From assembly GCA_934635225.1 (NCBI GenBank), contig CAKTYZ010000003.1, positions 99,210 through 163,209 of the forward strand: a stretch of 64,000 nucleotides of DNA. Direction: 5' to 3'. The position numbers and the translations under genes are program-made. Positions 13,697 through 42,421 of the stretch are shown piece after piece. Origin of the DNA: an uncultured Kiritimatiellota bacterium. Its GTDB lineage: Bacteria; Verrucomicrobiota; Kiritimatiellia; RFP12; UBA1067. The notes under the pieces were generated by a model. The model saw only the letters and a program-made list of their open reading frames with translations. It was not told where the DNA came from and ran no database searches. Numbering within the stretch: the first letter of the stretch is position 1; each line of letters begins with the position of its first letter.

Positions 13697-13898
13697 CGAA
13701 AATGGTACCAAAATGGTAATATCTAACGGGTCAGCAAAGAAGAGAGGCAGGCCATGGGGATCGACAAGGAGAGAAAGCGAACAACGCCACCCCATAGATG
13801 CCGGGGACGGCCCGGAACGGATGCTTCAACCGATGCGGATGGAAGGGGCGTCTCCATGCGGATGGATGAGCCGCCTCCATGCGGATGGGCCGTGGGGA
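13697..13898. repeat. copy 1 of a duplicated ~200-bp intergenic element ending in tandem 22-bp CCATGCGGATGG-containing units
   Basis: Direct sequence comparison with 55935-56136. They share an exact 36-mer AAAATGGTAATATCTAACGGGTCAGCAAAGAAGAGA, then about 130 nt at roughly 85-90% identity, then 2 (here) or 3 (copy 2) tandem units CCATGCGGATGG(A/G)TGAGCC.CC.C. Confidence 0.7.
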
Positions 13899-24000: not shown

Positions 24001-24065
24001 TCTCACACGGAGTGACGGAGGCACGGCGACTTGAACGCTCCGTTTCTCCGTGGCTCCGTGTGAGA
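24001..24065 (-). promoter_or_regulatory. long imperfect hairpin (12-bp outer stem TCTCACACGGAG / CTCCGTGTGAGA) in the 5' region of the LamG-protein gene
   Basis: Inverted repeat seen directly at 24001-24012 and 24054-24065, with a nested inner stem (GACGGAG / CTCCGT). Two smaller hairpins follow at 24077-24125. Located 60-170 nt upstream of the 23939 start. Confidence 0.3.
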
Positions 24066-24337: not shown

Positions 24338-26731
24338 TCACCGTGCGCAGCTGAACTTTGGATCCATCGCCCGCAAGACCGTCCAGGCCGCGAGCGCACG
24401 GACGTAGTGGTGCCCGCACTCGGCCTCGTCGAACGGGTTGCGCTTGCGCCCGTCGTAGCGGTCGCGGACGTCGCGGACAACCCGTTCGGCCTCCGCCCGG
24501 TCGTCGTTCCACGCCAGGAGCGCGGCAACGACATACTCGAACCCCGTCATCGTCTCGCGGTAGTACGGGAACGGCGAACGCGGGAAGCGGGCATCAGGAT
24601 ACCACGCCATCTTCAGCGAAACCTCGTCGCCGAGCGCGTAGGAGCGCATCGGATTGAACGTCGCGTCACTCCGCTGGCGGCAACGCGCCACGACCGTCGC
24701 GAGAGCCTTTCTCGCGTGCGCGCGGTCGGCGACTGGAGCTATCCCGGCGGCCTGTGCGGAGAAGTCGCCCAGCAGCTGGTCAATGAGGCAGCCGGCGCCC
24801 AGCTGGAAGTCCGGTTCGGACAGCTCTTCCGCCGTCCGCGCGTGCACCTGCAGGCCGTCGGCCACCGGGCCCTGAGGCGGCGTCACGCGCTGTTCGTAGT
24901 AGACGCCGTTGAACAGGTTCCTCTCCGTCCACGCCGCCCCGCGTCGCTTCAGTTCGCGGCAGGTCTCCGCAAACGCACGGTCGTCGCACATCTCAGACAT
25001 CTGCACGGAGGCCTCCAGCGCGGCCAAGTAAACGAATTCCATCTGCGGATTCGGTCCGTAGTATTCGACGTCCATCGTGTTGTGCTGGCATCCCTCCATG
25101 ACGCCGTCCCGGTCAGCGTCCCAGCCTCCAGAGATCCACGCGAAGGCGAGCGCACGGCGGATGGCCGGCCACGTCTTCCGCAGCCAATCGCGGTCGCCCG
25201 TCTTCCGCACATATTCGAGCGCCTTGACGACGCACTGCATCTGCCCGTCGGCGCACGCGACGCCGAGATCCTTCGCATTGTCCGCCAGCGGCAGTCGAAC
25301 GCGGAAGCGCATGTGGCCGTTCGCCGCGAGCTGGGCGCCGAAGGCGTTGTCCAGCATTGATCGCGCGAGTTCCGGCCACAAATCGACAAGGGCATGTTCG
25401 TAGCCCCACACGTGCGTGCAGTTGCCGTAGCAACTGCCCTCGCCGTCCAGGCACCCCTCCCAGCCGTAGAAGTTGCCGTCCGCCGTCCGAAAGCACGTCT
25501 CCGTGCGCAGCGTCGAGAGGTTGAAGAGCGCCGCCTCCTTCACGACGGCGGGGGCGTCCGCCGCAAGGACACGCCGGACAAACGCGACGGTTCCCGCCTC
25601 CAGTTCCGGCAAGTCGCGCACAAACGCGGCGGCGGCCTCCGCCGCCGAGGCGAACTTCGTCGCGTACCAGTTGCCCAGCACATGGTCAGCGACGTCCTCC
25701 TCATGATTCCACTCCCAGCCGAAGCGGTTGGGGAACCGCCACGCGAGAATGAACGGCACGGCCTTCGTCTCGCCGGGCGCGAGCTCCACCGCGACGGCGA
25801 GCTGGGCGAGCGGCAACTTCTTCGTCGCCGAGGCGTCCTGCGCGTCCGTGTCCGCCACGTCGCCCCGCGCGACAAAGCGTGACCAGAACCGATCCATGCC
25901 AACGCCCCAGCCGGGCTCGCGGACGTCCGTCGCCGTCGAGACCGCACCGACCCCATCCGGCACGAACAGACCGAACTCGCCATCCGCCGCGTTGGCGATT
26001 TCGCCGCCCAGCAGCCGGAACTTCCGCGTGTCGACCTGCCGCCCCGACAGGCAGACGCCCGTAAGACCGCCCTTCTCGACACGGCGCTCGTCGCGGACGA
26101 CGGGCGTCTTGCGGTCGGCGAAACGCGGCGCGCGCCCGCAGCAATTGACCAGCGTGCCGACGACAGACGCCTTGACACGCGACGGCGAGCGGTTCGTCAG
26201 CCGCCAGCGCAGAAGAATGACGGGAAGGCCGCTCTTGAGCGTGTCGCCGGGCACCAGCGGATTCATCGCCTCCAACGTGACGTCCACGGGCATCCCGCCG
26301 TCCGAGAGCTCGACCTGCGCAAGCGGATAGGCGGCCTTGAAGATGGCCTTGCCGAAGCGCGGATAGCCTTGGTTGACGGCGCGCGACCCGACATCGCCCT
26401 CGTATTCCGAAAGCGGCACGGGGCCTTCCAGCAGCCGCGCGACGCGGCGGCCGTCCGCCGTCTCGCACCGCAGGGCGAACGCCGGCTGATAGATCGGCGG
26501 CCAAAGGTAGCTTGTCGACGGAACGAAGCCTTTCGCTGGCTCGTTGAAAATCTCCCAGTCCACGAGTCCGCCTCGACCGGAGAGTGAGATCGTCCCGGTG
26601 CCGATTCCGCCCAGCGGCATCTTCACCTTTTCGAGATTCGCCCCCTCGTAGGTCTTCAGCACAGGCCAGTCCGCCGCGCACAGATGGGCGGCCACAGTTA
26701 GGCAAACGAAACTCAACGCGACTTTTCTCAT
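24338..26731 (-). CDS. GH116-family beta-glucosidase (GBA2-type, non-lysosomal glucosylceramidase-like)
   Basis: Signal peptide MRKVALSFVCLTVAAHLCA. The N-domain hallmark KMPLGGIGTGTISLSGRGG matches the GBA2 PLGGIGGGTI motif. Long catalytic (alpha/alpha)6-type C-region. Start set at M17 because the upstream codons overlap the conserved promoter motif. Confidence 0.6.
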   Translation of the reverse strand: MRKVALSFVCLTVAAHLCAADWPVLKTYEGANLEKVKMPLGGIGTGTISLSGRGGLVDWEIFNEPAKGFVPSTSYLWPPIYQPAFALRCETADGRRVARLLEGPVPLSEYEGDVGSRAVNQGYPRFGKAIFKAAYPLAQVELSDGGMPVDVTLEAMNPLVPGDTLKSGLPVILLRWRLTNRSPSRVKASVVGTLVNCCGRAPRFADRKTPVVRDERRVEKGGLTGVCLSGRQVDTRKFRLLGGEIANAADGEFGLFVPDGVGAVSTATDVREPGWGVGMDRFWSRFVARGDVADTDAQDASATKKLPLAQLAVAVELAPGETKAVPFILAWRFPNRFGWEWNHEEDVADHVLGNWYATKFASAAEAAAAFVRDLPELEAGTVAFVRRVLAADAPAVVKEAALFNLSTLRTETCFRTADGNFYGWEGCLDGEGSCYGNCTHVWGYEHALVDLWPELARSMLDNAFGAQLAANGHMRFRVRLPLADNAKDLGVACADGQMQCVVKALEYVRKTGDRDWLRKTWPAIRRALAFAWISGGWDADRDGVMEGCQHNTMDVEYYGPNPQMEFVYLAALEASVQMSEMCDDRAFAETCRELKRRGAAWTERNLFNGVYYEQRVTPPQGPVADGLQVHARTAEELSEPDFQLGAGCLIDQLLGDFSAQAAGIAPVADRAHARKALATVVARCRQRSDATFNPMRSYALGDEVSLKMAWYPDARFPRSPFPYYRETMTGFEYVVAALLAWNDDRAEAERVVRDVRDRYDGRKRNPFDEAECGHHYVRALAAWTVLRAMDPKFSCAR

Positions 26732-26739
26732 TTCGCCCC

Positions 26740-26790
26740 GTAGTATAGCATCCTCGCCGCGCCAAGGTCCACTACTCAAATGAGTAGTGC
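26740..26790 (-). promoter_or_regulatory. conserved 30-bp palindrome-containing motif plus TATACTAC -10 box (copy 2 of 3) upstream of the GH116 gene
   Basis: On the minus strand: GCACTACTCATTTGAGTAGTGGACCTTGGC, 13 nt, TATACTAC, 8 nt, ATG(26731). The 30-mer is identical at 35972-36001 and 42472-42501. Confidence 0.55.
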
Positions 26791-28151
26791 GTCGTCTGCG
26801 CGGCAGTTGGTGCTTGGACTACTGACCCGACAGTTCGCGCGTCGGAGACCGTGTCCATCGTCTTTGACAACGAACACAGCAAACTCATCCAATCCGGGAT
26901 GTAGTCACCCGCTCCTTCGATTCTAATCACATTCTCCACCTTGCCAGAAATCTCCGGGAGAGAAGACAGCGTGCCGACGATGATGACCTGCTCGGCGTCC
27001 AGCCTCAGATCCATTCGCTTCGGCGAAAGCCAGATCGTCTTTTGCCGTCCCCTTCGTCCGGCATCGTCCGCCTCTCCACAGACAACAACGACCTCCGCCT
27101 CGTCTAGGATTTGCCGTGCGTCTTGCACAATCACAAATGAAGCCGTCGGGAAACCTGTCAAGAACTCGCGTATTTCTCGCGGATACATTTCACCGCCAAG
27201 AACTTTTGAATCCGGCACAAGCCAGAACAATGGGTTCGTTCGCCCAACTTGGATGCCGTAATTTCGCTTCCTGATCAGCGGCGAACCGTCTTCGCCCTGC
27301 AATACAAGTGCCGCACTCGCCACACATCCAAGAAATCCCGTCAGGCCAATTCCCCAAAACAGTGCAAGTCTCAAAAAACTCCACCGCAGAGAAACAAGCA
27401 CACAAACAAGCGTCATTAAAGGAATTACCCACAAACACCAACTTTCACAGACCGAACTAAACAGAGCCGCCACAAAAAGTGCAACCCATTCCGCCCAGCA
27501 CAGCCAAGCTCCCTGCCGACGTCCGACAATAAAACCAAATGGCAGTACAACACTCCACCCCAACAGCCAGACAACGCCTCCGACAATGCCCGTTTCGACA
27601 ATCCACGTCAAGTGGCTGTTAACCAGAGTCCGATAGCGTTCCTTGCGATCCAAAGGCTGATACCACTGCATATAAGCCTCGCCTGAGTTCCCGATCCCCC
27701 AGCCGAACGGTGCGTCCAACATCATACGAGGTGCTGTCTGCCAAAGTTCAAGACGATTGCCGACAGAGCGATCTTCACGCAAGAACTCAGGTGCCAATCG
27801 TCCGACAACCCCCATCTGAATGGACAGCAGGCAGAACCCCACCACAACCGTCAAGAGGCTCGCCTTGACAAGCGTTCTCATGCTTTTCATGCGACGCAAA
27901 ACCACAAGTGCCAATGGAACAGAGGCAACTGCCAGTGCAACAATTCCACCTCGTGAGAACGTGTGCAGAAGAATGTACAGAGAACCCACAGCAAGCGCAG
28001 CTCCAAGAATACGGGCAAATCGACGAGCGGAACATGCCAAAGCCAATCCGATCAGAACCAGTTCGACAGCCAACACAGCCAGCTTGTTCGGATTGTCGAA
28101 CCCGAACTGCCAACGCACAATGCCATTGTAAAAGAAAGAGGCCAACAGCAT
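26772..28151 (-). CDS. O-antigen ligase / Wzy_C-family polytopic membrane protein
   Basis: 459 aa with multiple TM helices. Periplasmic-loop motif FGWGIGNSGEAYMQWYQ...RTLVNSHLTWIVETGIVGG matches the Wzy_C / WaaL signature (GxGxGN ... HNsyL..ETG). The last 6 codons run into the 30-bp motif. Confidence 0.55.
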   Translation of the reverse strand: MLLASFFYNGIVRWQFGFDNPNKLAVLAVELVLIGLALACSARRFARILGAALAVGSLYILLHTFSRGGIVALAVASVPLALVVLRRMKSMRTLVKASLLTVVVGFCLLSIQMGVVGRLAPEFLREDRSVGNRLELWQTAPRMMLDAPFGWGIGNSGEAYMQWYQPLDRKERYRTLVNSHLTWIVETGIVGGVVWLLGWSVVLPFGFIVGRRQGAWLCWAEWVALFVAALFSSVCESWCLWVIPLMTLVCVLVSLRWSFLRLALFWGIGLTGFLGCVASAALVLQGEDGSPLIRKRNYGIQVGRTNPLFWLVPDSKVLGGEMYPREIREFLTGFPTASFVIVQDARQILDEAEVVVVCGEADDAGRRGRQKTIWLSPKRMDLRLDAEQVIIVGTLSSLPEISGKVENVIRIEGAGDYIPDWMSLLCSLSKTMDTVSDARTVGSVVQAPTAAQTTHYSFE

Positions 28152-28157
28152 ATGCGA

Positions 28158-29861
28158 TTACTCGGCCTTCCACAATTCCGCTATCGGGCGGCTGGGCAGC
28201 ATCACGCGATAGGCATCGGGAATCTCATCGCCTTGCGCACGTGCGACACAGCGCAGATTCACAACATCACCAACCAGCGGAGCCGAATCAAATAACGTGC
28301 GCCAATTGACCGCTGCCGAACGCCGCGTTCTGTCTAGCGCCAACTGAAACACGGCCCGTCCCAACCGTTCTGCCGCGCCACACCCCGAATGGCCAAGCCC
28401 CGGATAGGCTCGATAGAGAATCGGGTATTCCTTATCTTTAGCCGCCTTGAAGAACGCAAGGGAGCGTTCGTAACCACATTCATTCTCACCCGTCGTGAGG
28501 CACCAGAGGATAGATGCGCCTCCGCTCGTCGGCTCATCGAAACTGCTTGGAATGTGAATGTGAACGGCCAAAAACCGCTCAGGCTTGCGCAAGGCCAGAC
28601 GCTGTGCATACTGCGCGGCGCCCGAATACCCCCAAAGCAAAAACCGCACATCAGGAATTCTTTCTTCCCGGACAAGACCATCTACACACTTTGACCACGC
28701 TTCAGAAACCTGATCAAACGCACGATCTGCCGTGCGCGCCTCTTGTCGCGTGAGATCCGTCCAGTTCTTGCGCGGATTCCACAGATGCCGCGCGGAGCCC
28801 CAGGCGACGACTGCAAGCTTGTTGCTCTCGGCAAAGGCGACCATGCGCCCGACCTCAGAGGCAATATTCCCCGTGACAATCTTCGCAGGGATGTCGTCCG
28901 GACTGTTCGCAAGCAGGCTCAGGCAAAGCACGCCTCGCGGGATCTCGTTTCTTCGTGTGCGCAGAAAGACTGTCAGGACAGGCTGAGCCGTCGGCTTTGC
29001 CCTCATAGTCCGACGGAGAATTTCAATCTTGTCGCGCCTCGTCAAGCTTCGCCAACGCAGCAACAACTCTTCCGACGGAAGCCAAAACGAATTGACGTCC
29101 TCCGCTTTTGGTAGACGATTCCCTCGTGTGCCCGTGATGGCATTCGCCCAAACGCCCCCTTCTGCACGGCGACGTCCTTGCAGTTTTAAGATCTCAAGAA
29201 AATAGGCTCGCACAAAATCTTCTAAAACCGCACTACGACTGTGACCAAGCCCCGGAACATCCACCCATGTCCACCGTCGAGCGGCTGCGCGCCCATCATG
29301 AAAGTGCGACAGGCAAGTACCATAACGAAAATCTTCCGTTCCGCAGGCTACAATGCCCGGCGGCCTTTCGCCCCCAATCTGCGACAGACCCTGCCACCAA
29401 CCAGCGGAAGCTGCGCACCACGCCGTGACACGTGAAGGGAACTGTTCAGCGAAACTTGCGGCAAAATGCGCGCCGCCGGAAAACCCGTAAACAAACAGCG
29501 GCAACCGTCCCAATCCGACGGAATCAAGAAACGTCAACAATTTCAGGCCGGATCCTGACCGCGCATCGTAGTAGCCATGTCCCTGTTTCAAATCCGCAAC
29601 AGGGGAACGGAAGGTGACGGCAACCAGTGCTATCGCGTTTGACTGCGCGAACGAAACCCACGCCTTTTCTTTGAGATACACCGAGGCATCGCCATTTGCG
29701 CCCGCAAGCACCACCATGACCGCGCGACAATTCTTCACCTCGCAGACAGGATGGATCAGTGCCTCGAAATGCACTTCTTGCGGCTGATCCTCCGCACGGA
29801 TCGTCACACAGAAGATTGCCGCAAACGCGGACACGAGCAACATGAAAGACGCAGGCTTCAT
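28158..29861 (-). CDS. secreted tandem alpha/beta-hydrolase (two esterase domains)
   Basis: 567 aa with a signal peptide. Two nucleophile elbows, GFSGGA and GYSGAAQ (GxSxG), each followed by a His near the domain end (GLGHS.. twice). Confidence 0.55.
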   Translation of the reverse strand: MKPASFMLLVSAFAAIFCVTIRAEDQPQEVHFEALIHPVCEVKNCRAVMVVLAGANGDASVYLKEKAWVSFAQSNAIALVAVTFRSPVADLKQGHGYYDARSGSGLKLLTFLDSVGLGRLPLFVYGFSGGAHFAASFAEQFPSRVTAWCAASAGWWQGLSQIGGERPPGIVACGTEDFRYGTCLSHFHDGRAAARRWTWVDVPGLGHSRSAVLEDFVRAYFLEILKLQGRRRAEGGVWANAITGTRGNRLPKAEDVNSFWLPSEELLLRWRSLTRRDKIEILRRTMRAKPTAQPVLTVFLRTRRNEIPRGVLCLSLLANSPDDIPAKIVTGNIASEVGRMVAFAESNKLAVVAWGSARHLWNPRKNWTDLTRQEARTADRAFDQVSEAWSKCVDGLVREERIPDVRFLLWGYSGAAQYAQRLALRKPERFLAVHIHIPSSFDEPTSGGASILWCLTTGENECGYERSLAFFKAAKDKEYPILYRAYPGLGHSGCGAAERLGRAVFQLALDRTRRSAAVNWRTLFDSAPLVGDVVNLRCVARAQGDEIPDAYRVMLPSRPIAELWKAE

Positions 29862-32170
29862 TTTCTCAGGACAAGATCCGGTGCATAGATGATGTTATCC
29901 TCGCTTTTCGGAAGTTCAGGCTGAACCTCTCTGGTCACAAGTTCCCGCGTCCGCCTATCCAGCAAGTTCCGCTTGCTTCGCAAAAGCGCAATCACCTCCC
30001 TGACCGGTTTGGCGTTCCGCTCGGAGATCAACTTGACTTCAGTCCGCGTCCCATCCGTTGTCTCAGACGAAAACGTGTCGGCTCCTTCATACAGGCCACC
30101 TGAACGCATCTCGCCGAAATCGCCACGCGAGAAATAGGACATGAGCGAATGAACCCTGACCGGCGGAAGGTGTTCAAACCGATACCGCCCCGCACTGTCG
30201 GTTTTCGTCCACCGTTCAGGATACGTCACAAGTTCAAGTCCTGGCAAGAAAGTCCCCTTGATCCGAACGCCGCCCTGCGGACGTCCACGCTCATCGACAA
30301 CTCGCCCCGAAACAGTGACCATCATGGACGCGGGGAACACCTCAACGGCAAGATGCACGTCATTCGATCCCTTTGTAAAACGTCCGTCAGGCAGAATCCG
30401 AAAACGCAAGCCATCAAGACGCTCCATGAGCAGCACGTTCTGCTGATCGACTCTCCAGTCTCCCGGTTCAAGATCCACTCCACGCTCCTTGATGCAATCG
30501 ATTTCCAGATGATGTGCCTGTCCACCAGATCCAACGACATCAATCCCATACTTCTCTGTTGGCGGAGGACACATTCGTTCGTAAAACCGCGCCAACGCCA
30601 CAGACATCTTTTCGGGCGTATCCGCAACTTTCAATTCCGCCAAATCAAACGCCGTCACGTCGGGATGCACAACGAACCCATAGAAACTCGTATTTCGAGC
30701 CGCCTCCCTGGTCACTTCCTCCTGAGTCTTAATCTGCGGCTCAGGCCGTTTGACTCCTTTCTTCACATCTTCATGCCATTTCACGAACTCTTCCGCGTTT
30801 GGGACAAAGCGATTGACAATCTTGCCATTTCGTACGCTGGCAACCTGTTTTCCTGTTGACGTATACAGGTAGTCGCAATCGCTCTTCTCGTCTCCGCCGC
30901 TCCGAGTCCGCAACAGTCTTCCATTCTTGACGTCAAACCAGAACTCGACAGAAAGACCTGTTTTTGGCATGATTTTGCAATAGGTCAAGCGACCTGTTTC
31001 CATGTATCGGCTCTCGGTTGTCGTGCCGGATTTCCGATCCGTCTCCAGCGTCATGGACAACGCGCCCTTTTCGTCATAGGCGTATTCAGTCCGACTGCCA
31101 TATCCCTGCGAATATGTCGTTTCCAGCCATCGCTTCTTGCCGCGAAGATTCTTGCCCGATGTGAACACGCGCCAGACACGCCGACATTCTTTCCGTTCGC
31201 TGACTCTCATGCCCGTTTCGAGATTCGCGTACTCCTCCTCCGTCTCGCCATCTGGTCGCTTGCGGAGAATGTGCGCATTTCGCCGCTTCGCATCGACTTT
31301 CGTGATGACATAAGTCCAGTCGTTCAGCGAAAGGATCTGCCGCGTCCCTAAGTCATACGCATAGTTCCGCTCTCCATCCGAGAAAGTCGCCCGCCCTTTC
31401 TTTGCCAAGCCATGGACAATCCGATACGTCCGTCCGCCAGACTTCAACTGGACAACGGACATCCGCTCTTTCTGAAGCCCCCACTGTCCATTCGCATTCA
31501 GACCTCCGACACGCACGGGTGCCAAAAGGACTTCAGCCCTTCCGCCATCCGTAAACGCAATCGTCCGCATTTGGCCGCTCTCCCTGCCGCCCGTTTCCAT
31601 CCGGCACAAGACCTTGCCGCCACAGACCATCTGCTCGAAAGTCCCGTCCGCCGAATAGCGGAACTCGACCGACAGCCCTCGCGTGTTCATTCTCACGAGC
31701 CGACCGTTCCTGAAAACGAGGTCGGGGAGCTTCTTCTCCAATCGCCAATAGAAGCGAGTCTCGCCGCCGTTCGTCACGCAACCGGAACCACGGCGTCCGC
31801 GCCACAGGTTCGGGCGTTCCTCCTTCCTGAGCCAGAACTTCCGCACAATTCCGTCCGGGCTGTGCATCACAAGACAGTCCCGACTGACAGGATAGATTCG
31901 CGACTCAAACCAGGGGATGCGCCAACCGTAGCCCAGAGTCGTCTTGCCACTCGGCTCTTCGGACGACCAGTAGGCATAGACCGTGCATTTCTTCGGCCCG
32001 AACGACAACGTACCCAACGGATATTCGGCGATTGCGTGACCAATGGCATCCGTCCCCTCAATTGCACTGTCCGCCAACGCCGCTCCACTGTGGAGCGGCA
32101 TCCTCATCCGCCCACCCTGCGACACACAGCCGACGCAAGCAAAACCAACGGCTAAGACAATGCGTTTCAT
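29858..32170 (-). CDS. lipoprotein with C-terminal CarboxypepD_reg-like (transthyretin-fold) domain and conserved ..NIIYAPDLVLRK tail (paralog 1)
   Basis: 770 aa. Lipobox LAVGFACVGC. Near the C-terminus VTVSGRVVDERGRPQGGVRIKG..YRF is a CarboxypepD_reg-like beta-sandwich. The tail is shared with 32177-33094 and 33559-34482. Confidence 0.4.
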   Translation of the reverse strand: MKRIVLAVGFACVGCVSQGGRMRMPLHSGAALADSAIEGTDAIGHAIAEYPLGTLSFGPKKCTVYAYWSSEEPSGKTTLGYGWRIPWFESRIYPVSRDCLVMHSPDGIVRKFWLRKEERPNLWRGRRGSGCVTNGGETRFYWRLEKKLPDLVFRNGRLVRMNTRGLSVEFRYSADGTFEQMVCGGKVLCRMETGGRESGQMRTIAFTDGGRAEVLLAPVRVGGLNANGQWGLQKERMSVVQLKSGGRTYRIVHGLAKKGRATFSDGERNYAYDLGTRQILSLNDWTYVITKVDAKRRNAHILRKRPDGETEEEYANLETGMRVSERKECRRVWRVFTSGKNLRGKKRWLETTYSQGYGSRTEYAYDEKGALSMTLETDRKSGTTTESRYMETGRLTYCKIMPKTGLSVEFWFDVKNGRLLRTRSGGDEKSDCDYLYTSTGKQVASVRNGKIVNRFVPNAEEFVKWHEDVKKGVKRPEPQIKTQEEVTREAARNTSFYGFVVHPDVTAFDLAELKVADTPEKMSVALARFYERMCPPPTEKYGIDVVGSGGQAHHLEIDCIKERGVDLEPGDWRVDQQNVLLMERLDGLRFRILPDGRFTKGSNDVHLAVEVFPASMMVTVSGRVVDERGRPQGGVRIKGTFLPGLELVTYPERWTKTDSAGRYRFEHLPPVRVHSLMSYFSRGDFGEMRSGGLYEGADTFSSETTDGTRTEVKLISERNAKPVREVIALLRSKRNLLDRRTRELVTREVQPELPKSEDNIIYAPDLVLRK

Positions 32171-32176
32171 CTATAT

Positions 32177-33094
32177 TTACGGCAAGGCGATATCTGGCAC
32201 ATAGATAACGTTGTTCGTGCTCACGGGAAATCCTCTAATTGGCGCTTTCAGAGGATAAGGCTTTCCTTTCTTTCTCTCATAGGCAGACACGATTCTCTCT
32301 GCAGATGTCCTCAGGGACGCTGTAAGTGTCAAGACTTCAACTTCTTTCACCTGTAGGTCTCGCTCAATCCCCTCTCGAATCCCTATACGTACGGAAAGAG
32401 GGGAATCCTCAAAACACGTTCGTCTCAACATATTCGTATTCGCCATAAAGACCGCCGCATCATTCAACGACGGCAATCTTAACCCCTCACAACTCCAATA
32501 GCCATCTTGTCTTGACACTGTGAACATTGCGGAGACTTTTTTCAGATTCTCATTCTCTGAATATGGAAATTGCATAATTTCAATTTGTCTCCCCGCAACG
32601 GGATTCCCATTCTTGTCTACGCAGCGTCCCTGTAGTGTCAGATTTTCTCGGTACAATTCCACGTAACAACTTTTTTCTAAAGGCATCTTTGATGCCATCC
32701 CAAAGTAGCGAATCTCCTTATCTTTTATAATCTCCACAAAGTCTGCAACAACCCAATACATTGAAGAGGATACGTCTGGCATTACGATGGAGAACCATCC
32801 TTTCTGATCGGAACTTCCCCTCGCAACAACTTTGCCATCGGGAAACGACAGAACTTGCACATTGGCGGAAACCACACGACGACGAAAGCCATTTCTCTTT
32901 GAGAATCGTTTTTGAGCCTCATTCTCAATAACAACTCGCAAGGACTCCTCGGCCGATTGGTCGTATGCGGCTGCAATCTCATTTGCCGTCAACTCATCGA
33001 CTCGCCATACTTCACCTTCTATCTTTGTTGCGCGACAGATGTAGACACCACAAAAAAGCAACATCATCGTAACACAAAATTTTTTAAAAAGCAT
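32177..33094 (-). CDS. lipoprotein, CarboxypepD_reg-like domain, conserved ..FPVSTNNVIYVPDIALP tail (paralog 2)
   Basis: 305 aa. Signal/lipobox MLFKKFCVTMMLLFCGVYIC. LQGRCVDKNGNPVAGRQIEI motif. Lower-GC DNA. Confidence 0.4.
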   Translation of the reverse strand: MLFKKFCVTMMLLFCGVYICRATKIEGEVWRVDELTANEIAAAYDQSAEESLRVVIENEAQKRFSKRNGFRRRVVSANVQVLSFPDGKVVARGSSDQKGWFSIVMPDVSSSMYWVVADFVEIIKDKEIRYFGMASKMPLEKSCYVELYRENLTLQGRCVDKNGNPVAGRQIEIMQFPYSENENLKKVSAMFTVSRQDGYWSCEGLRLPSLNDAAVFMANTNMLRRTCFEDSPLSVRIGIREGIERDLQVKEVEVLTLTASLRTSAERIVSAYERKKGKPYPLKAPIRGFPVSTNNVIYVPDIALP

Positions 33095-33111
33095 ATCACA
33101 TACTTCCTAAT

Positions 33112-33543
33112 TTATTCAACAGTATCACCTTGTAAACAAGCATCAGATGCTTCGCAGACATCTTCTGTTCCGCACGAATCATTCTCACGACACAGATCTT
33201 CTTCTTCACATCTATCTTGAAGACAGGGCTCATCACCAGCAGGCATTGACAGAAGGCAAGAATCTGCATTTGCACGACCACCAGGACAATCATCGGAATA
33301 CTTCAGTTCTGGTAAACAAACGTCTTCCGTGTCTCGACCACCTGGGCAGGTGTCGGATTCTTCACTCTCTGAGGTTGCTGGTTGACAGAAGTCCTGGCTG
33401 TGTCCACCTCCAGGACAGAGAGGTGGCAGAAATGGAGAATCTGTCGCCAGCACTGTGTCCGTGAAGGTAAAGTGTGCGAATCCACCAGCCATCAAAATTT
33501 GAAAAAGTCGATGCGCGAACTGACGACAAGAGATATTCTGCAT
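33112..33543 (-). CDS. Cys/Asp-rich repeat peptide (candidate RiPP precursor or secreted metal-binding peptide)
   Basis: 143 aa (start uncertain). Three D-x-C-P-G-G repeats (LCPGGGHSQDFC, DTCPGGRDTEDVC, DDCPGGRANADSC), then five hexads DRCEEE DLCREN DSCGTE DVCEAS DACLQG D, i.e. (DxCxxx)5, which is CxxxD spacing. Fifteen nt downstream of a gene and 17 nt upstream of the next one in the same operon as a radical-SAM/SPASM gene. Confidence 0.45.
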   Translation of the reverse strand: MQNISCRQFAHRLFQILMAGGFAHFTFTDTVLATDSPFLPPLCPGGGHSQDFCQPATSESEESDTCPGGRDTEDVCLPELKYSDDCPGGRANADSCLLSMPAGDEPCLQDRCEEEDLCRENDSCGTEDVCEASDACLQGDTVE

Positions 33544-33558
33544 TGTAAGTATTCCTTT

Positions 33559-34482
33559 TTATTGCAGAACCAGATCCGGCACATAGATGACATTGTTCGT
33601 GCTGACTGGAAAATTCGTCATCGGATTCAAACGTTTCATTTTCTTCCCCGATTTACGTTCCGTGGCGGCAATGGTCTTTTCTACCGCCCTGTGGTTCTCA
33701 TCCGTGACATTGGGGACAACCCGTTCAGCATCATATGAACCAAAAGGTTTGCGCCGCGCATATATCCCCAATTGCAAAGGATAGTGACTGACCTGCCAAT
33801 TGTCCACGATATTCGTATAACAGATGTAGGACATCAAAGGGATGATCGGAGGAGAGGCAAGCCCGTCTACACGCCATCTTCCAAGCGTATCCGTCACCGC
33901 CAGTTGTGTTGGACAAAGACGGCATTCCTCCTCCGTTTCTCCAGACGTAATCGGATGCACATAAACAAAAACGCCCTGTGCCGGAGTACCGTCTTTCTGC
34001 ACACACCTTCCCATTGCTGAAGCATATGAACGCATCATGGTTATGTTCGCTTCATAATATGCCGCATTACGCCTCTTATATGTCCGGGACACCCCAACAT
34101 ACAAGACAGGTCTACCAAACTCCTCACGGACAACCTTACTATAGGCTCGCCATAACGAATCTTTCCCAGGCATTACAACAGAATAATTTCCATCCTGATC
34201 GACCTTTCCGCGACCAACAACCTTGAAGTCGGGAAGCGTCTGTATCTCAACCGTCGCACCAACGGGAATGGTCATATATTTGATGCCTTGAGCATTTTGT
34301 CGCTCCATGATTTGCCGTGCGGCAAGTTCAGGGATACGTGCACCCGTTGTCGCATATTCCTCAGCGACTTCCGCAATGCTCGGCGTCGCCTCAAGTCGCA
34401 CCCAGCCCTTGACAACATCTCCACTTGCATTTACAGCAACTAATAAAGATGCAACCGTTCCCATCAATTTCCGTGCTTTCAT
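33559..34482 (-). CDS. secreted protein, CarboxypepD_reg-like domain, conserved ..FPVSTNNVIYVPDLVLQ tail (paralog 3)
   Basis: 308 aa. The ORF track fuses this with the upstream radical-SAM reading frame. The real start MKARKLMGTVASLLVAVNA (ATG 34482) lies 13 nt after the radical-SAM stop. AMGRCVQKDGTPAQG motif. Confidence 0.45.
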   Translation of the reverse strand: MKARKLMGTVASLLVAVNASGDVVKGWVRLEATPSIAEVAEEYATTGARIPELAARQIMERQNAQGIKYMTIPVGATVEIQTLPDFKVVGRGKVDQDGNYSVVMPGKDSLWRAYSKVVREEFGRPVLYVGVSRTYKRRNAAYYEANITMMRSYASAMGRCVQKDGTPAQGVFVYVHPITSGETEEECRLCPTQLAVTDTLGRWRVDGLASPPIIPLMSYICYTNIVDNWQVSHYPLQLGIYARRKPFGSYDAERVVPNVTDENHRAVEKTIAATERKSGKKMKRLNPMTNFPVSTNNVIYVPDLVLQ

Positions 34483-34495
34483 GATTCTATTCCTT

Positions 34496-35610
34496 TCATT
34501 GTTTTGCGTACAAGGACGCAAACCATGCCTCCTGCATAATCCAACGTTTTGAATCCTCACAATTCCGCTCAGACAGGGCAAATGTTCCGTCCGGACGAGC
34601 GACCTCCCACGGGCATGGGCCTTTGCAAAACGGGTAGGCCCAGCATCCGAAGCAATGTCCTTTGACAAGCTCGCGATACTTACGCCAAAACGTCTGACAC
34701 TTTTCAACGTCAGGGCCATCCAAGACAGATCCAACAACCCAGTTCTCCATGCCGACAAAACGGTGACATGGATAGGGCGTTCCGTTCGCCCCGACCGTCG
34801 TCGTCCCGCGACAGGCGCCGCATCGAAAGGGTGAAATCGGCTCTGCCTCCAGTTTCTTCGCGCCATCAGCCTTTTGATTCCTGCAACGGCCAGATCAAAC
34901 GACCCCGTTCCCGTGCGCGTCGGGCACTGCCCGTCATGGCGTTCCTTCGGCCCGTCCAGACTGACCATCAGACCAAAGTTGTATCTCTTGATGACAGAGA
35001 TCACGTCATCGTCAATGAGCGTTCCATTCGTCGTCATCGAATAGAACACCTTCTTGCCATGAAGCTTCGCCAACCGCTGACTGTATGCCACCGCGAACAG
35101 CAAGACCTTCTTGTTCATCAGCGGCTCACCACCAAAGAACGTGATCCCAACCTCCTTTGAACGTCCGCTGACGGCGAACAGCCAGTTGATGGCCGCACGG
35201 GCAATCGTCTCGCTCATTCGGCCTTGATTTGGCACTTCATCGCGACACGTCCCGCAATAGCAATACCGACACGCGAGATTGCAGACCTCTGATAGGGCAA
35301 GCTCTAATTTTGTCCACGGAGCCTCATAGCGAAGTCGCAACAGTCGATCAAATTCCGCATCCGTCGGAATCGGCTGTTCACACGGCTCAAAAAAGCCCGA
35401 CTCCTCCAAGGCTGATATTTCACGCCTCAACCCTTCGTTCTCAGGCGACGCCTGTTCACCTGCCGCTCGCCGTTCCAAATGGGACTTTGCTTCTTGCGAG
35501 ATTTTCAACGGGCGTTTCAGCCCCCTATGCGCGACGAACGAATCGCCCTGATATGAAAAGACATGATAGGGAACTTCCTCAAGAATCCGTTCCATAAATT
35601 CAACCTCCAT
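34496..35610 (-). pseudogene. radical SAM / SPASM-domain enzyme (peptide-maturase-like) with an apparent frameshift near 34850-34895 and a shortened core; possibly a pseudogene or assembly indel
   Basis: Frame A carries ..LELALSEVCNLACRYCYCG (CX3CX2C), GITFFGGEPLM and SLDGPKERHDGQCPTRTGTGSFDLAVAGIKRLMA (an anSME/SPASM-subfamily block). It then becomes Arg-rich nonsense. Frame +2 opens at 34894 and reads KKLEAEPISPFRCGACRG..(x14)..C ... KGHCFGCWAYPFCKGPC ... C, i.e. SPASM CX2CX5CX3C clusters, ending at 34496. There are about 110 aa ahead of the CX3CX2C, which could be an RRE-type N-domain. The core-to-SPASM spacing looks about 50-90 aa shorter than in anSME/PqqE-type enzymes. Confidence 0.55.
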
Positions 35611-35971
35611 ATGCTCGCGCCAACACTCCAACTGAAGACGAGAACCACACAGATATCGCCACATATGCAATAACATGGAAAAGTATACCTTATTTTCATT
35701 TGGCTTGTCAATCATGCGACCATGACAAATTAGAAACCACGACAGTAGATGCAAGTCTCCGCAGGTGTGGCATCGCGCGGAGGGGCGGGAAGTGGCGCGA
35801 GTGAGGAGCGAGGGTTTGCAGACGTCGAAGGGGTCTCGCCCGCAGCCCGTGGTCTCGCCGAGGCATGGCAGGCTGAAGCCGGACGGTTGTCTTCAGAAAG
35901 AAGCGCAACCCCGAACGATGAGACCGAGCGAACAGCTTCCCGCTCCGACGCGCGCACTGTCAAGCCGACAT

Positions 35972-36038
35972 GCCAAGGTCCACTACTCAAATGAGTAGTG
36001 CCGCGCACGACATCAACAACGCCACAGTTTGGTATACT
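35972..36038 (+). promoter_or_regulatory. conserved 30-bp motif (copy 1 of 3) plus TATACTAC -10 box upstream of the sensor-kinase gene (near-leaderless start)
   Basis: Plus strand: GCCAAGGTCCACTACTCAAATGAGTAGTGC (35972-36001), 31 nt, TATACT (36033-36038), 7 nt, ATG 36046. The motif orientation is inverted relative to the two minus-strand copies. The same motif could also serve the divergent radical-SAM operon. Confidence 0.5.
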
Positions 36039-36045
36039 ACACGCC

Positions 36046-37694: not shown

Positions 37695-40600
37695 TCACCG
37701 ACCGTCCGAGGCGTTGCGCGACCAGCCGGCTTTCAGGACGTCTAGCAGCGTCTCATTGATCGGGAAATCCGTTCCGTCCCTGCGCATGGCGTGAAGCGCC
37801 ATGGTATTCGGCGCAGTCGTCTCTCGGAAATTCCAGTAGGTCCAACTGAACCCGTATTCCTCAAACAGGCCGATGCGCCAACCCGTGTCCTTCGCCTGCT
37901 GCCGTCCGTCCCCGACCTTCTCGACGGCGAACTCGCCGACTAACAGCGGCACCTTGTGCTTCCGTTGAAAGGCCACCACCGGCTGAAGGGCTTCGCGCAA
38001 GCTTTCCGGCGTGCTGACCGGCGTGCCGAAGACAGCGGCGGCAGCATAAGAGTCGCCCGTCGCGTTTTCCAGTCGCATCCAGCCGCGCAGACGCCAAGAC
38101 ACGGCACGACCCGGCAATTTGATCCGCGGTCCAACCCAACCGTTAAAGGAGCCTGTCCCCGTGACGCGCAACGCACCCGGACGCGCGTGCCCGACCGTCT
38201 GGTCGTAAGCGACGACCGAGACGGGTTCGCGCTCCGCCACGAAGCCTTCGGCATCGGCGTCAAACCCATACTGCGCAACGACTCGCCCACGCTCGTCAAC
38301 CAACTCAATGTCATCGAACCACGCCGTGCCCGCGTTGGCGGACGACCGCAGCAACACGGCAAGTTCAGAATCCAACTCGCCGAACGTCAGGACCCGCTCA
38401 ACCGGCATCCAGCCGCACGTGCCGCGCGCACCCGCGCCTTCTCCCTCGTTGCGCAACCAACCGCCGTTCACCCCGCCACCCTCGTAGAAGTGAAAGGTGT
38501 AAATGAGGTTGCGTTCCGCCAGGACGTTTCCATCCCCCAGGCTCGTGGCGTTGGAGAAACTGTCGCCCGACACGACGATCACCTTGTCCGGATCGACCTC
38601 GCGAATCTCGGCAAGAGCCTTGCGCTGAAGTGTGACAAGCACATCAGGGCTTCCCTGCTGCGTGTCGGGCTCATTCAGCAATTCGTACGCGGCCAACACG
38701 TTCCGCCCCCGATAGCGTGTCGCCAACGCGCGCCAAAGAGACAAGAAACGGGCTTGGCACGCCCGACTGTGCCAAAGCTCGTTCTTGCCGCCGCGCGTGT
38801 GGGCAAAGAGATTCTGCCCGCCCGGCGCAACGTGCAAGTCCAAAATGACGTATTGCCCATATCTCTCAGCCCACGACAAGACCTCGTCGATGTCCCGAAC
38901 CCCTTGCTCCCTTAAGGCTCCCAGCCGATTTGGATCTTCAATTTGCTCGCAGGAAACGGCCAAACGCAAGACATTGGCACCCCACTCCGCCTGTCGTCGC
39001 ATATCGCTCTCCGTGTAGACCGTGCCGTCCGCCTGCCACCAGCCCCAGTTGATTCCCCGCAACACAATCGGACGATTGCCCGCCCAAAGGCGTTCGCCCT
39101 CGACGCGAACCGGCGGCAGGGCCACGACATCCGGTCCCAGATACTGCGTGTGCACGTTGTAGACCTTGACGCGTCCGCAGTTCCGGATCGTGTACAGCGG
39201 CGGCGGATCGGCTGGCGCGTCCGCGTGGAAAAAGACAAACGCCTCACGCAGGATCACGTTGTCGCAGTCCTCAAAGACGAAGAGCGTCTGCGGCTTCGCG
39301 ACATGGCACTTCCCCCAACCGAGATGGACAACGGTGTTCGTCAGGCCTCGGATACGAATGGGCAGCTCCTCGTTCTCCAGACTGTAGGGCGCAAACGTGA
39401 ATGGCACAAGCGCCAGGTCATATTCCTCCGGGTGGTCGCCCAGCATCCACCGATCGCCTTCGCCGATCGGTGGCAACGGCAATCTTTCGCGACTCTTGAT
39501 CGTCGGGCCAATGCCAGGGAACGGCTTCTCAGAGATTTGCGTCTGCTCCGCCGCCGAATAACGTGTCCCCGCCAGCGGCGGCGGATTCCAGTTCGGACGA
39601 AAGGCGTCCGGCACAGGTTTCCTTCGTCGGACGACAATCCATTCCTTTCCGGCGGCGTCCCGTTCAAAGTGCCCGCCGCCCCGCACCACGTTCTCTCGCA
39701 TCAGCTTCTCGCACACACGAAAAAGGTCGTCCAGCCGGTAGTCGCTGTATGAGAACGTGCGGCTGTCGTCAAGAACCGAGACATAGTCGGGCGCAATCGC
39801 CCGTGTGCCGCGCGACGTCAGAAGGACGCCCGCCGCACTGGACGGATTGCAGTCCGAGTCCCAGCCGCACTGCATGGCGACCTTGATTGTCCGCGCGAGG
39901 TCGCCCCCGCCATAGAGGAGACCCATCAGCAGAAAGGCGCCGTTCGGCTTGACGTCAGAGCCCTTCTGGTCGATCCGCCCGCGATGATAGGCGGGATCGT
40001 CGACGTATTTCGCCTCGACCTTCCGCCAGCACGCCCGCCAGTCATCCGGGAGCGCGCGATGCCACGCACGGACATCACGCACCATCTCCGCGTACTGCGA
40101 TTCCGGCGGCACGCACGCGAGTCCGGCATCAATAATCGCGTCAATGTCGCGGGTGAAGAACGCCTCGGCGTACATGCCGCCCATGAACGCCCCGGCCCAA
40201 ACGCCGTCGCCGCTGTTCACAAGCGTGCCGAAGAGCCGCGAGAGCTCGATCGCGCGCTGCGGCAGCCCTGGCGAGATGAGCCCCGCGTAGTCACTCTCGA
40301 TCTGGTAGTCGATGTTGTCCGCGCAGGCGTTGTAGCGCGGATGCCCGCAGTCGGGCGGCGCGATGCCGCGCCGCAGGTTGTCGCGCCCGGCCCAGTTAGC
40401 CGCGCACAGGCCGAACTTCGTGTTGGCGAAGTCCAGCCCGGCCTGACGCGGCGAGACGTCGAAGCCATGCTGTTCCAAGGTCCGAAGGAAGGTCATCTCC
40501 ACGAACAGGTCGTCGTTGTCAAAGCCGCCGTTGATCATCTCAGGCTCCCAGACTGGAACCTTCTCGTCGGGAATCGGCTCGCCCTGGTACCTGAATTCCG

Positions 40601-40760
40601 TTGGCAGCCCCCACTGGACGCCGATCATCTGCCCCAGCCATCCGGCCTTCATCCTGTCGCGCCAGTCTTTCACGGACAGCCGACGCACGTCTGCATCGTC
40701 CGCGCCCGCACAGCAAGCCGAGCCCGCGAGCAGTCCCGCCGCGAGAAACGCGTTCATCAT
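37695..40760 (-). CDS. secreted multidomain protein: ADP-ribosylglycohydrolase (ARH)-like N-domain fused to a GH5 cellulase-family domain and a C-terminal beta-sandwich (CBM-like) region
   Basis: Signal peptide MMNAFLAAGLLAGSAC. The ARH-like blocks GWLGQMIGVQWGLPTEF and C-terminal GGGDLARTIKVAMQCGWDSDCNPSSAAG are degenerate versions of GxAxGDALG and GGDTDT. GH5 carries the acid/base LLNEP and nucleophile region LLVGEFAV. SD AAAGGA before MMNAF (40760). Confidence 0.6.
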   Translation of the reverse strand: MMNAFLAAGLLAGSACCAGADDADVRRLSVKDWRDRMKAGWLGQMIGVQWGLPTEFRYQGEPIPDEKVPVWEPEMINGGFDNDDLFVEMTFLRTLEQHGFDVSPRQAGLDFANTKFGLCAANWAGRDNLRRGIAPPDCGHPRYNACADNIDYQIESDYAGLISPGLPQRAIELSRLFGTLVNSGDGVWAGAFMGGMYAEAFFTRDIDAIIDAGLACVPPESQYAEMVRDVRAWHRALPDDWRACWRKVEAKYVDDPAYHRGRIDQKGSDVKPNGAFLLMGLLYGGGDLARTIKVAMQCGWDSDCNPSSAAGVLLTSRGTRAIAPDYVSVLDDSRTFSYSDYRLDDLFRVCEKLMRENVVRGGGHFERDAAGKEWIVVRRRKPVPDAFRPNWNPPPLAGTRYSAAEQTQISEKPFPGIGPTIKSRERLPLPPIGEGDRWMLGDHPEEYDLALVPFTFAPYSLENEELPIRIRGLTNTVVHLGWGKCHVAKPQTLFVFEDCDNVILREAFVFFHADAPADPPPLYTIRNCGRVKVYNVHTQYLGPDVVALPPVRVEGERLWAGNRPIVLRGINWGWWQADGTVYTESDMRRQAEWGANVLRLAVSCEQIEDPNRLGALREQGVRDIDEVLSWAERYGQYVILDLHVAPGGQNLFAHTRGGKNELWHSRACQARFLSLWRALATRYRGRNVLAAYELLNEPDTQQGSPDVLVTLQRKALAEIREVDPDKVIVVSGDSFSNATSLGDGNVLAERNLIYTFHFYEGGGVNGGWLRNEGEGAGARGTCGWMPVERVLTFGELDSELAVLLRSSANAGTAWFDDIELVDERGRVVAQYGFDADAEGFVAEREPVSVVAYDQTVGHARPGALRVTGTGSFNGWVGPRIKLPGRAVSWRLRGWMRLENATGDSYAAAAVFGTPVSTPESLREALQPVVAFQRKHKVPLLVGEFAVEKVGDGRQQAKDTGWRIGLFEEYGFSWTYWNFRETTAPNTMALHAMRRDGTDFPINETLLDVLKAGWSRNASDGR

Positions 40761-40791
40761 CGTCCTGTGTCCTTTCACTCGCACGCACCCG

Positions 40792-42123
40792 TCACTCGGC
40801 CGCCACGGGACAGACTACGCGAAGCCCGAAGAAGTTCTTCTGCAGTTCGTCCGGCAGCGTCAGGTTGATGCCCCACCGCACGCTCAGGCGGCAGAAGAAC
40901 GCCTTGTTGCACCAGCTACCGCCGCGCACAGCGGCAAATCCGTTGTCCGCAATCGCCGCACCATCCGCATGGGCGAGGTTGTCGTCTACATATCCGCCGA
41001 GGCACCATTCCCAGACGTTGCCGGCCATGTCGTAAAGCCCCCAGTGGTTCGGCGCGTAAGACCCGACGACGGCCGTTCCGTTCTCCGCCGAGCAGTCCTG
41101 TGCCGGCTCCGCACCGTCGATGAAGCCGCCGTTCGCGAGGTAGCGCCCCGGCAAGTTCGCGTCCGGCGCATCGTCCTGACCGGCGACGACGAGAACCGCC
41201 GCGCCGTTCCCCCAGCGCCCGTCGATGTCGCCCGCACGGGCCGCGTATTCCCACTGCGCCTCCGTCGGCAGGTCAAACGCCAGACCCGTGCGCGTCCGCA
41301 GCATGCCGAGATAGGAAGTCCCTGCAGGATCGGCAGGATAGTCGGCGGTCGCATCGTTCCAGTTCCCGGCCGCCTTGCGGATCATGTAGTAACTCACGCG
41401 CTCGACTGGCCGCATCGCGTAGTCCTGCACGTTGTTGAAATACGCACACCTGAAATTGCCGTTGTCGTTGTCCTTTTCTGGGATCTCCCATTGGCGCTGC
41501 GTGATGGGGAAGACGCCGATGTAGTAGCTGTCGGACATCGTCACCTTGTGCGTCTTTTCCGTGTTGCCCCAGTTGGCGCTTCCCATCGTCCACGTGACGT
41601 CCTTGGCCATGATCTTGCGCAGCACGAGGGATGTCGTGCGGTAGTCGGCGTTCGCGAGCAGACCTCCCGGCAGGAAGTCTTCGGACGGATAGTAGCGCTG
41701 CGTCTTCGGCTGCGCACCGCTCGAGATATCGACAACCATGTAATCGGGCGGATTGTCCAGTGCCCACGCCTTGACGACGGCCCGCGCACCGCCGTTCGCT
41801 ACCTTGTGCCCAGGCCAGTCCGCGCTCGGATCCCAACGGATCGTGTGTGCACCGACATCGGACTTCTTCCAGCAGTCGCCCGTGACGCGCTGAATGTGCG
41901 TACCTCCGATGGACGACCAGACGCCGTTCGCGTCGTTCGTCTGGATGTCCAGCGTGATGATGGCTGGCGCGACGGCAAGCTCGTAGTCAACCGTGACCCT
42001 GCGATGGCTATCCTGCCGCATCGCCACGGACACAATTTCAGGGGGTGGCTCAGCCATCGCGCAAGATGTGCCAACCACGCCGACGATGACGCCACACAGG
42101 CAAGCGAACTGACTTCTGTTCAT
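40792..42123 (-). CDS. secreted formylglycine-generating-enzyme (FGE)-sulfatase domain protein (SUMF1/EgtB/PvdO superfamily)
   Basis: Signal peptide. C-terminal hallmark NHWGLYDMAGNVWEW...RGGSW of the FGE-sulfatase fold, and an earlier YRLPTEAEWEYAARAG-like block (LPTEAQWEYAARAG). Confidence 0.75.
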   Translation of the reverse strand: MNRSQFACLCGVIVGVVGTSCAMAEPPPEIVSVAMRQDSHRRVTVDYELAVAPAIITLDIQTNDANGVWSSIGGTHIQRVTGDCWKKSDVGAHTIRWDPSADWPGHKVANGGARAVVKAWALDNPPDYMVVDISSGAQPKTQRYYPSEDFLPGGLLANADYRTTSLVLRKIMAKDVTWTMGSANWGNTEKTHKVTMSDSYYIGVFPITQRQWEIPEKDNDNGNFRCAYFNNVQDYAMRPVERVSYYMIRKAAGNWNDATADYPADPAGTSYLGMLRTRTGLAFDLPTEAQWEYAARAGDIDGRWGNGAAVLVVAGQDDAPDANLPGRYLANGGFIDGAEPAQDCSAENGTAVVGSYAPNHWGLYDMAGNVWEWCLGGYVDDNLAHADGAAIADNGFAAVRGGSWCNKAFFCRLSVRWGINLTLPDELQKNFFGLRVVCPVAAE

Positions 42124-42163
42124 GGGACGGTTCCTTTCGTCTTGTGTTTTTCGTTTGTGCTTG

Positions 42164-42421
42164 TTAGCGAATGATGTAGAAGAAGCCTGGCATCAGCGTC
42201 GGATCGATGCCGATGCCCTCCGACCACAGCCATGTGCAGAACCTGGCTTCCAAGGCCCCCGCCGTCGTGCAGACGGACACGCCGCCAGAGTCGAGTCCAC
42301 CCACGGCGCATCTCTCCGCGATGGGAACCGACACGGTGTTTCCGCTGACAATGCAACTGTCAGCTTCGCCAAACGACGCGCACGCGACGGCGCATGCCAG
42401 ACAAGCCAGTAGTCTCTTCAT
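42164..42421 (-). CDS. small secreted Cys-rich hypothetical protein (85 aa)
   Basis: MKRLLACLACAVACASFG signal peptide. The mature part has 5 Cys. RBS AGAGGA. Directly downstream of motif/promoter copy 3. Confidence 0.35.
   Translation of the reverse strand: MKRLLACLACAVACASFGEADSCIVSGNTVSVPIAERCAVGGLDSGGVSVCTTAGALEARFCTWLWSEGIGIDPTLMPGFFYIIR

Follow-up and report, generated by a model that had tools for sequence, protein, structure and literature searches.

The output domains of NarL bind 7-2-7 sites as dimers. NarL activates napF and yeaR from sites located at −40..−49 and −38..−47, respectively, and the heptamer of an engineered high-affinity NarL site is TACCCCT (PMC4549865). In the polysaccharide utilization loci (PULs) of Bacteroides, hybrid two-component systems act as local sensor/regulators (PMC3404733). 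The locus analyzed here shares features with both. Like the NarL/NarP sites of E. coli (napF, yeaR), it contains inverted half-sites separated by a 2-bp gap, predicted to be bound by a GerE-type dimer, together with genes for a cognate HisKA_3 kinase and a NarL-family regulator. Like the Bacteroides PULs, it belongs to a gut bacterium and encodes a sensor/regulator beside glycoside hydrolase genes, which are its putative targets. Unlike the one-protein Bacteroides hybrids with their AraC-type output, kinase and regulator are two separate proteins here, the latter with a GerE output domain, and the locus is devoid of SusC/D genes. The lux box and the DosR box (LuxR/FixJ family) are dyads of approximately 18–20 bp that overlap the −35 region or lie just ahead of it and are bound by helix-turn-helix dimers; LuxR-type proteins are activated by ligand, not by phosphorylation. 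The palindrome described below is similar to these boxes in size, dyad symmetry and position, but the sequences are unrelated. To our knowledge, no regulation has so far been characterized in this uncultured human-gut lineage of Kiritimatiellota.

The window (the whole 64-kb stretch of DNA that was analyzed) contains three exact matches to the 30-mer GCCAAGGTCCACTACTCAAATGAGTAGTGC, compared with 0 expected in 100 shuffles. As claimed in the preliminary description, the copies are identical at 30/30 positions, and their 20-nt core, CACTACTCA-AA-TGAGTAGTG, is a perfect 9-2-9 inverted repeat. A search of the window that tolerated as many as 3 mismatches found no fourth copy of the 30-mer and only these three sites for the core; degenerate copies of the motif were likewise missing from the 64 kb at 3–4 mismatches. 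The copy next to the kinase gene had been described as inverted. This is correct relative to the gene served but not on the DNA, where all three 30-mers lie on the + strand and are direct repeats. The features of the locus are listed in Table 1, in which the gene assignments derive from Pfam and NCBIfam; these databases confirmed the earlier calls of the GH116, kinase, NarL-type regulator, small-protein and FGE genes. The order is: GH116, copy 1, a six-gene minus-strand block, copy 2, kinase/regulator, GH5–FGE–small protein, copy 3 and a ClpB-like gene. The kinase gene is indeed divergent from the radical-SAM gene.

Table 1. Features of the GH116–kinase locus (positions in the window).
Feature	Position	Strand	Remarks
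GH116 glycoside hydrolase	24338–26731	−	Pfam/NCBIfam; predicted regulon member
Extended −10, TGCTATACT	26742–26750	−	GH116 promoter; ATG 10 nt downstream; −35-like TGGACC at 26766–26771
Copy 1 of the 30-mer	26761–26790	+	Palindrome 26770–26789; putative operator left with GH116; left direct repeat of the insertion
Wzy_C gene	26772–28151	−	Pfam/NCBIfam
Inserted 9.2-kb segment	26791–35971	−	Six-gene operon, from the radical-SAM/SPASM maturase-like gene to Wzy_C
19-nt inverted repeat, GACAGTKCGCGCGTCGGAG	26829–26847	+ (left arm)	Right arm 35943–35961; just inside both insertion ends
Radical-SAM/SPASM maturase-like gene	33559–35676	−	Pfam/NCBIfam
Copy 2 of the 30-mer	35972–36001	+	Palindrome 35981–36000; putative operator left with the kinase gene; right direct repeat of the insertion
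Extended −10, TGGTATACT	36030–36038	+	Kinase/regulator promoter; ATG 7 nt downstream
HisKA_3 sensor histidine kinase, 310 aa	36046–36978	+	Pfam/NCBIfam
NarL-family response regulator, 212 aa	36975–37613	+	Receiver (conserved Asp in a VIVMD motif) and GerE helix-turn-helix; Pfam/NCBIfam; candidate palindrome binder
Operon served by copy 3	37695–42421	−	Small protein, FGE, GH5/ADP-ribosylglycohydrolase
GH5/ADP-ribosylglycohydrolase protein	37695–40757	−	Copy-3 operon
FGE-domain protein	40792–42123	−	Copy-3 operon
Small Cys-rich protein, 85 aa	42164–42421	−	First gene of the copy-3 operon
Extended −10, TGTTATACT	42453–42461	−	Small-protein/FGE/GH5 promoter; −35-like TGGACC at 42477–42482
Copy 3 of the 30-mer	42472–42501	+	Palindrome 42481–42500; putative operator, paralogous promoter module of the small-protein/FGE/GH5 operon

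Judging from sequence comparisons, the palindrome is likely to be the operator of the adjacent HisKA_3/NarL-family pair. A single ancestral site was shared by GH116 and the kinase gene, copy 3 belongs to a paralogous promoter module, and an inserted island duplicated the 30-mer to give copies 1 and 2.

The locus was compared in seven lineages, namely an uncultured Kiritimatiellota metagenome-assembled genome (MAG; kinase 98% identical) and lineages with kinase orthologues at 91, 81, 71, 68, 66 and 61% identity. In 7/7 of them, GH116 lies next to the kinase/regulator pair in divergent orientation, at a distance of approximately 100 nt. The MAG is 98% identical to the window over the common block; GH116 and the kinase gene share a single motif copy there, and the region corresponding to window positions 26791–35971 is absent. 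Since the MAG contig has “MERGED” in its name and three breakpoints relative to the window (two of them besides that of the island), it was not relied on alone. Chimerism of the MAG was considered as the cause of the single-site layout and dismissed, because the six further lineages have the same arrangement. The layout with one site is found in all relatives and is therefore ancestral, and it is the window that bears an insertion. Copies 1 and 2 are thus one ancestral site duplicated by the 9.2-kb insertion, so that the three copies do not represent three independent sites.

Alignment of the seven spacers (A1) revealed 40 invariant columns among 119. Fifteen of these make up ACTACTCA and TGAGTAG, between which the central two bases vary (AA, CA, AT). 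The start codons and a flanking TGnTATA-T box at either end account for most of the other invariant columns; five are isolated elsewhere in the spacer. In the three most distant lineages the rest of the spacer is unalignable. The conserved form of the core is (C/T)ACTACTCA-NN-TGAGTAG(T/C). In all lineages the 20-mer is separated from the −10 hexamer by 21–22 nt on the GH116 side and by 31–32 nt on the kinase side; relative to the dyad, the two promoters therefore differ in position by one helical turn. The suggestion of a conserved cis-regulatory site linked to the neighboring NarL-type system is borne out: apart from the palindrome and the two −10 boxes, the spacer has no conserved block in the seven lineages.

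Such a footprint, with its fixed spacing, marks a site of protein binding and is not what a recently spread element would show. It is very improbable that the 30-mer is a small dispersed promoter-bearing repeat (REP/MITE-like) of recent spread, as which the identity of all three copies, including their non-palindromic flank, and the 85% identity of copies 1 and 3 over 59 nt might be read. The 64 kb contain no more copies even at 3–4 mismatches, the MAG has only two copies, both at the locus, the matches found in metagenomes are unrelated, and one copy has kept a fixed orthologous position since the split of the lineages with 61% kinase identity. The preliminary description had proposed, as one possibility, recent spread of a small element; this is unsupported, since no copies were seen away from the locus; the motif was found in promoter regions of this locus only (window, MAG and relatives) and is not scattered.

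The exact core was also sought in a genome collection holding one genome per species, where it occurs at the orthologous locus in one genome only, the incomplete Kiritimatiellota MAG, which carries two exact copies, both at the locus. The other exact matches in the collection, in Ekhidna and in a Pseudomonadota MAG, were set aside as unrelated. A metagenome scan for the core gave 17 loci, none of them related to the GH116/kinase locus; these palindromes are chance or unrelated occurrences and add no further contexts. An Rfam scan of the window detected tRNA only, with no match at the motif. By exact-protein look-ups, more than 20 contigs 99.6–100% identical to the window were found, all with the same arrangement; the record names of several suggest Hadza and Nepal gut metagenomes. 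The ends of Logan contigs fall precisely at the 30-mer; this results from assembly at k = 31 in the presence of an exact repeat of 30 bp.

The sequence TATACTA occurs four times in 64 kb, compared with 0.12 expected. Three of the boxes, at 26741–26747(−), 36033–36039(+) and 42452–42458(−), lie 13, 31 and 13 nt from a 30-mer, exactly as the preliminary description had it; the fourth, at 55879(−), is without the motif. At copies 1 and 3, a consensus scan called TGGACC-18-TATACT, the −10 hexamer being preceded by TG, in agreement with the proposal of TGGACC as a candidate −35 sequence. TGGACC is conserved in part (G and C invariant in A1), and the flank CCAAGGTC, conserved in the close clade, may be a −35-like element; the dimer model alone leaves the conservation of this flank unexplained.

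The pattern TGNTATAMT was found 14 times in the window (e.g. at 1227, 4616, 46887, 48131, 53730 and 55880), against 0.21 expected, with an ATG 7–10 nt downstream in nine of the 14 cases. The extended −10 is therefore the standard promoter here, and often a leaderless one. As in sigma-70 extended −10 promoters, TGn and a TATAAT-like hexamer precede the gene starts, and they are invariant at both promoters of A1. TATACTAY had been regarded as a regulon-specific partner of the palindrome. It is instead a variant of the general TGnTATAMT of the host, and distant orthologues carry TATAAT at both promoter positions (A1). Leaderless mRNAs appear to be common in this Kiritimatiellota lineage, to judge from the spacing of promoters and start codons. 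The kinase/regulator mRNA is predicted to be leaderless, since its ATG follows the −10 box by 7 nt. Transcription starts were predicted approximately 7 nt past the −10 box, at 26735, 36045 and 42446 (each ±2); on these predicted starts, which underlie all leader lengths and dyad positions given here, the dyad is centered at approximately −44.5 for GH116 and copy 3 and at approximately −54.5 for the kinase gene.

The predicted center at approximately −44.5 may be compared with the position of the NarL sites at napF and yeaR. Features of 7-2-7-type sites found here are half-sites of at least 7 nt with a 2-bp gap, a regulator and a kinase encoded at the locus, and a site that outlasts the divergence of the spacer. 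The half-site itself is different. It is CTACTCA, conserved as 8 nt (ACTACTCA), and not a TACCCCT-type heptamer as in NarL sites; because of this mismatch the specificity of NarL is not transferable, and the motif is an analogue of a NarL site rather than a NarL site. Other differences from NarL concern the targets, which are here glycoside hydrolase genes rather than respiratory ones, the host, which is an uncultured gut member of the Kiritimatiellota, and the use of one site in common by two divergent, leaderless promoters of the extended −10 type.

We infer the following course of regulation. The phosphorylated form of the NarL-family regulator would bind the dyad as a dimer, placing one GerE helix-turn-helix on each of the inverted half-sites, 2 bp apart. 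In the ancestral state a single site stood between back-to-back extended −10 promoters, with the predicted dyad position at approximately −44.5 for GH116 and −54.5 for kinase/regulator; since these centers differ by one helical turn, both promoters could be controlled by a single bound dimer. The effect would most likely be activation upon phosphorylation, accompanied by positive autoregulation. By analogy with NarL at napF and yeaR, activation is more likely than repression, although the latter may also occur, given the strong extended −10 boxes. From copy 3, the small-protein/FGE/GH5 operon would be placed under the same control. An insertion exactly at the putative operator duplicated the 30-mer, with GH116 and the kinase operon each keeping a complete site, hence the three identical copies.

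Conservation of a site does not name its binder, and the operator could be real but serve another regulator, encoded elsewhere, of which the adjacent two-component system would be merely a target. We hold this to be unlikely. The site co-occurs with the kinase/regulator pair in seven lineages while the other neighbors change, the motif is confined to this locus, and an inverted x-2-x geometry suits GerE-type dimers. Moreover, the recognition helix of the regulator, DGVRAHLK, is invariant in the seven orthologues, and a diverged paralogous system has both a palindrome and a recognition helix diverged to match. In this distant system (kinase 55%, regulator 49%), a perfect 7-2-7 palindrome, CTACAAG-AA-CTTGTAG, is located in the divergent spacer 22 nt upstream of TGGTATAAT, and the helix is altered to DGVNFHFR. 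This is a single case of site and protein altering together, and as such suggestive. A further relative, L051, had no usable intergenic region for comparison.

The adjacent regulator is the candidate binder of a DNA site. A function of the palindrome as an RNA hairpin, either a terminator or a 3′-end stabilizer for the Wzy_C and ClpB-like genes, is highly improbable. The copy 1 palindrome does contain the Wzy_C stop codon, and a distance of 27 nt separates copy 3 from that of the ClpB-like gene; the RNA forms an 8-bp stem with a 4-nt loop, and 46-nt segments fold at −15 to −22 kcal/mol. However, the stem is followed by GGACC/CCGCG and not by a U tract, the z-scores are weak in two of the three contexts, and the ancestral site and those of six other lineages stand between divergent promoters, downstream of no gene. 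The consensus scan called no terminator-like site at any copy of the 30-mer, which, with the lack of a U tract, upholds the earlier remark that the motif is not a terminator. One terminator-like call near copy 2 (35926–35906, minus strand) is located outside the 30-mer.

The junctions of the insertion could be defined to the base. Exactly the 30-mer is duplicated: the left side is ancestral through the last base of the 30-mer, and the right side is ancestral from its first. The G+C content of the insertion is 0.47–0.59, compared with 0.65–0.69 in the surroundings. It has a promoter of its own, TTGACA-18-TATACT, at 35711–35682, 5 nt ahead of the ATG at 35676. Neither Pfam (at E≤1) nor NCBIfam detected a recombinase (integrase or transposase) within it. 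A homologous six-gene operon, 70–78% identical over window positions 27009–35571, was identified between SIMPL and EF-G genes in another contig (L046), and a radical-SAM homologue with a different upstream context in L049; this search for a donor site by way of radical-SAM homologues found both contigs to be without the motif and without the terminal inverted repeat. Wzy_C is 29 codons longer than its L046 counterpart, its stop codon falling within the palindrome, and the extra tail is probably a junction artefact. The arms of GACAGTKCGCGCGTCGGAG were considered as possible transposon ends; no target duplication flanks them, and the search found the repeat nowhere else.

Two minor observations concern this segment. 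Compared with the L046 and L049 homologues, the radical-SAM gene of the window is missing approximately 267 nt and continues in frame into the next ORF as a fusion (705 vs. approximately 470 aa); by this loss and fusion, the gene may be inactive or remodeled. The region 26800–26825 is weakly similar to the ancestral flank of the kinase promoter, possibly by chance.

IMEX at dif, pdif modules and CIME remnants are recombinase-less islands bounded by short palindromic repeats. The inserted block is similar to these in that it has no recombinase of its own and lies between direct repeats of approximately 30 bp containing a palindrome. The repeat differs from those of IMEX and pdif in being a conserved promoter site with a 2-bp center, not a 6-bp Xer-type spacer or an 11-6-11 layout. 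In contrast to dif islands, no skew switch coincides with the site, and the evidence of mobility is limited to one insertion event.

This likeness raises the question of whether recombination is the primary role of the 30-mer, be it as an att-like core on which a recombinase acts in trans or as a dif/pdif-like site. The segments between copies would in that case be cassettes, and the link with promoters would be secondary. As expected of att-type sites, direct repeats (copies 1 and 2) bound a segment absent from relatives: they are exact repeats around 9.2 kb that all relatives lack. All three copies have the same orientation, a 19-nt inverted repeat is present inside both insertion ends, and in the L035 relative an element with terminal inverted repeats is located 8 nt from a motif copy. 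Still, we regard such a primary role as improbable. No integrase or transposase is encoded in the insertion, lineages free of the insertion also conserve one copy in the promoter spacer, and the half-sites surround a variable 2-bp center, as opposed to arms around a 6–8-bp crossover region. In addition, GC skew is monotonic across the window, with no switch as expected at dif, and in L046 the homologous operon is an ordinary chromosomal one that lacks the motif.

With the palindrome taken as an operator in the first place, the 30-bp duplication is possibly the product of exchange between identical operator modules or of a recombinase acting in trans. More speculatively, the operator module may double as a crossover substrate that captured the recombinase-less 9.2-kb operon by homologous exchange or with a trans-acting recombinase, an idea to which we assign only a small chance. 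If it is true, relocating operons would plug into a regulon hot spot, the operator being duplicated and both flanking promoters staying regulated, and transcription-factor operators would be portable integration sites in these glycan-degradation loci.

Copy 3 differs from copies 1 and 2 in its origin. Copies 1 and 3 are 85% identical over 59 nt, the −10 box included, and a module of the copy-3 type (“B-type”, ATAGTATAACACGC...) is also present in the MAG. Another operon, encoding a 1338-aa protein and GH28, is preceded in L035 by a second motif copy with a copy-3-type promoter. In L045, one operon comprises GH116 and, directly after it, the small-protein and FGE genes, and in L041 and L043 the gene directly downstream of GH116 is GH28. 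These contexts indicate that, in the different lineages, the copies serve members of a single glycan-degradation gene set. The outermost base of the palindrome is uniform within each genome, being C in the window (3 copies) and in the MAG (2) and T in both L035 copies; this agreement points to homogenization or recent duplication of the module, which would account for the identity of the non-palindromic flank as well. The asymmetric flank of the 30-mer has diverged in distant lineages. Strong selection, one of the two causes suggested earlier for the 30/30 identity, does not suffice alone: with the flank included, this identity reflects recent duplication or homogenization as well.

The L035 contig has two further features in this region. 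Approximately six tandem units of the 13-nt sequence CAGACATTCTGCC are present at 6095–6165, past the copy-3-type promoter and ahead of the 1338-aa gene. At 6229–7417 there is a 356-aa gene (Fic-like_C, with a faint match to Y1 transposase) with 37-bp terminal inverted repeats, CAGGGTCAGACATGATTGCCACAGTA.ATTGCCACAG; this is the element situated 8 nt from the second motif copy.

The analysis provides a candidate operator, promoter pair and regulator for a glycan-degradation locus (GH116, GH5 and FGE; GH28 in relatives) and documents the promoter grammar of the host, in which extended −10 boxes are standard and leaderless starts frequent. The proposed switch would be ordinary in kind; what is unusual is an insertion that duplicates exactly the operator. 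It would constitute a natural example of a divergent promoter split with control of both genes kept, and so exact a duplication raises the question of whether operator modules act as recombination sites.

Several observations were made in the vicinity of the locus and elsewhere in the window. The MAG contig (L003 3717–8000, L004 1–2400) shares only the block from GH116 to copy 3 with the window; its flanks are unrelated, and its ClpB-like gene is cut after approximately 38 codons. These differences mean either that a variable glycan locus has truly been rearranged or that the merged contig is chimeric. Downstream of GH116, at 24001–24065, an inverted repeat with 26-nt arms (85% complementary) and a 13-nt loop is located near the end of similarity to the MAG contig, at 24118. 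Finally, two copies of an approximately 180-nt sequence, 85% identical, are present at 13710–13889 and 55937–56135. They start with AAAATGGTAATATCTAACGGGTCAGCAAAGAAGAGAG, which contains the promoter-like TGGTAATAT, and end in 23-nt tandem units, CCATGCGGATGG(A/G)TGAGCCACCC. They have no Rfam match and may represent a small RNA or a leader element.
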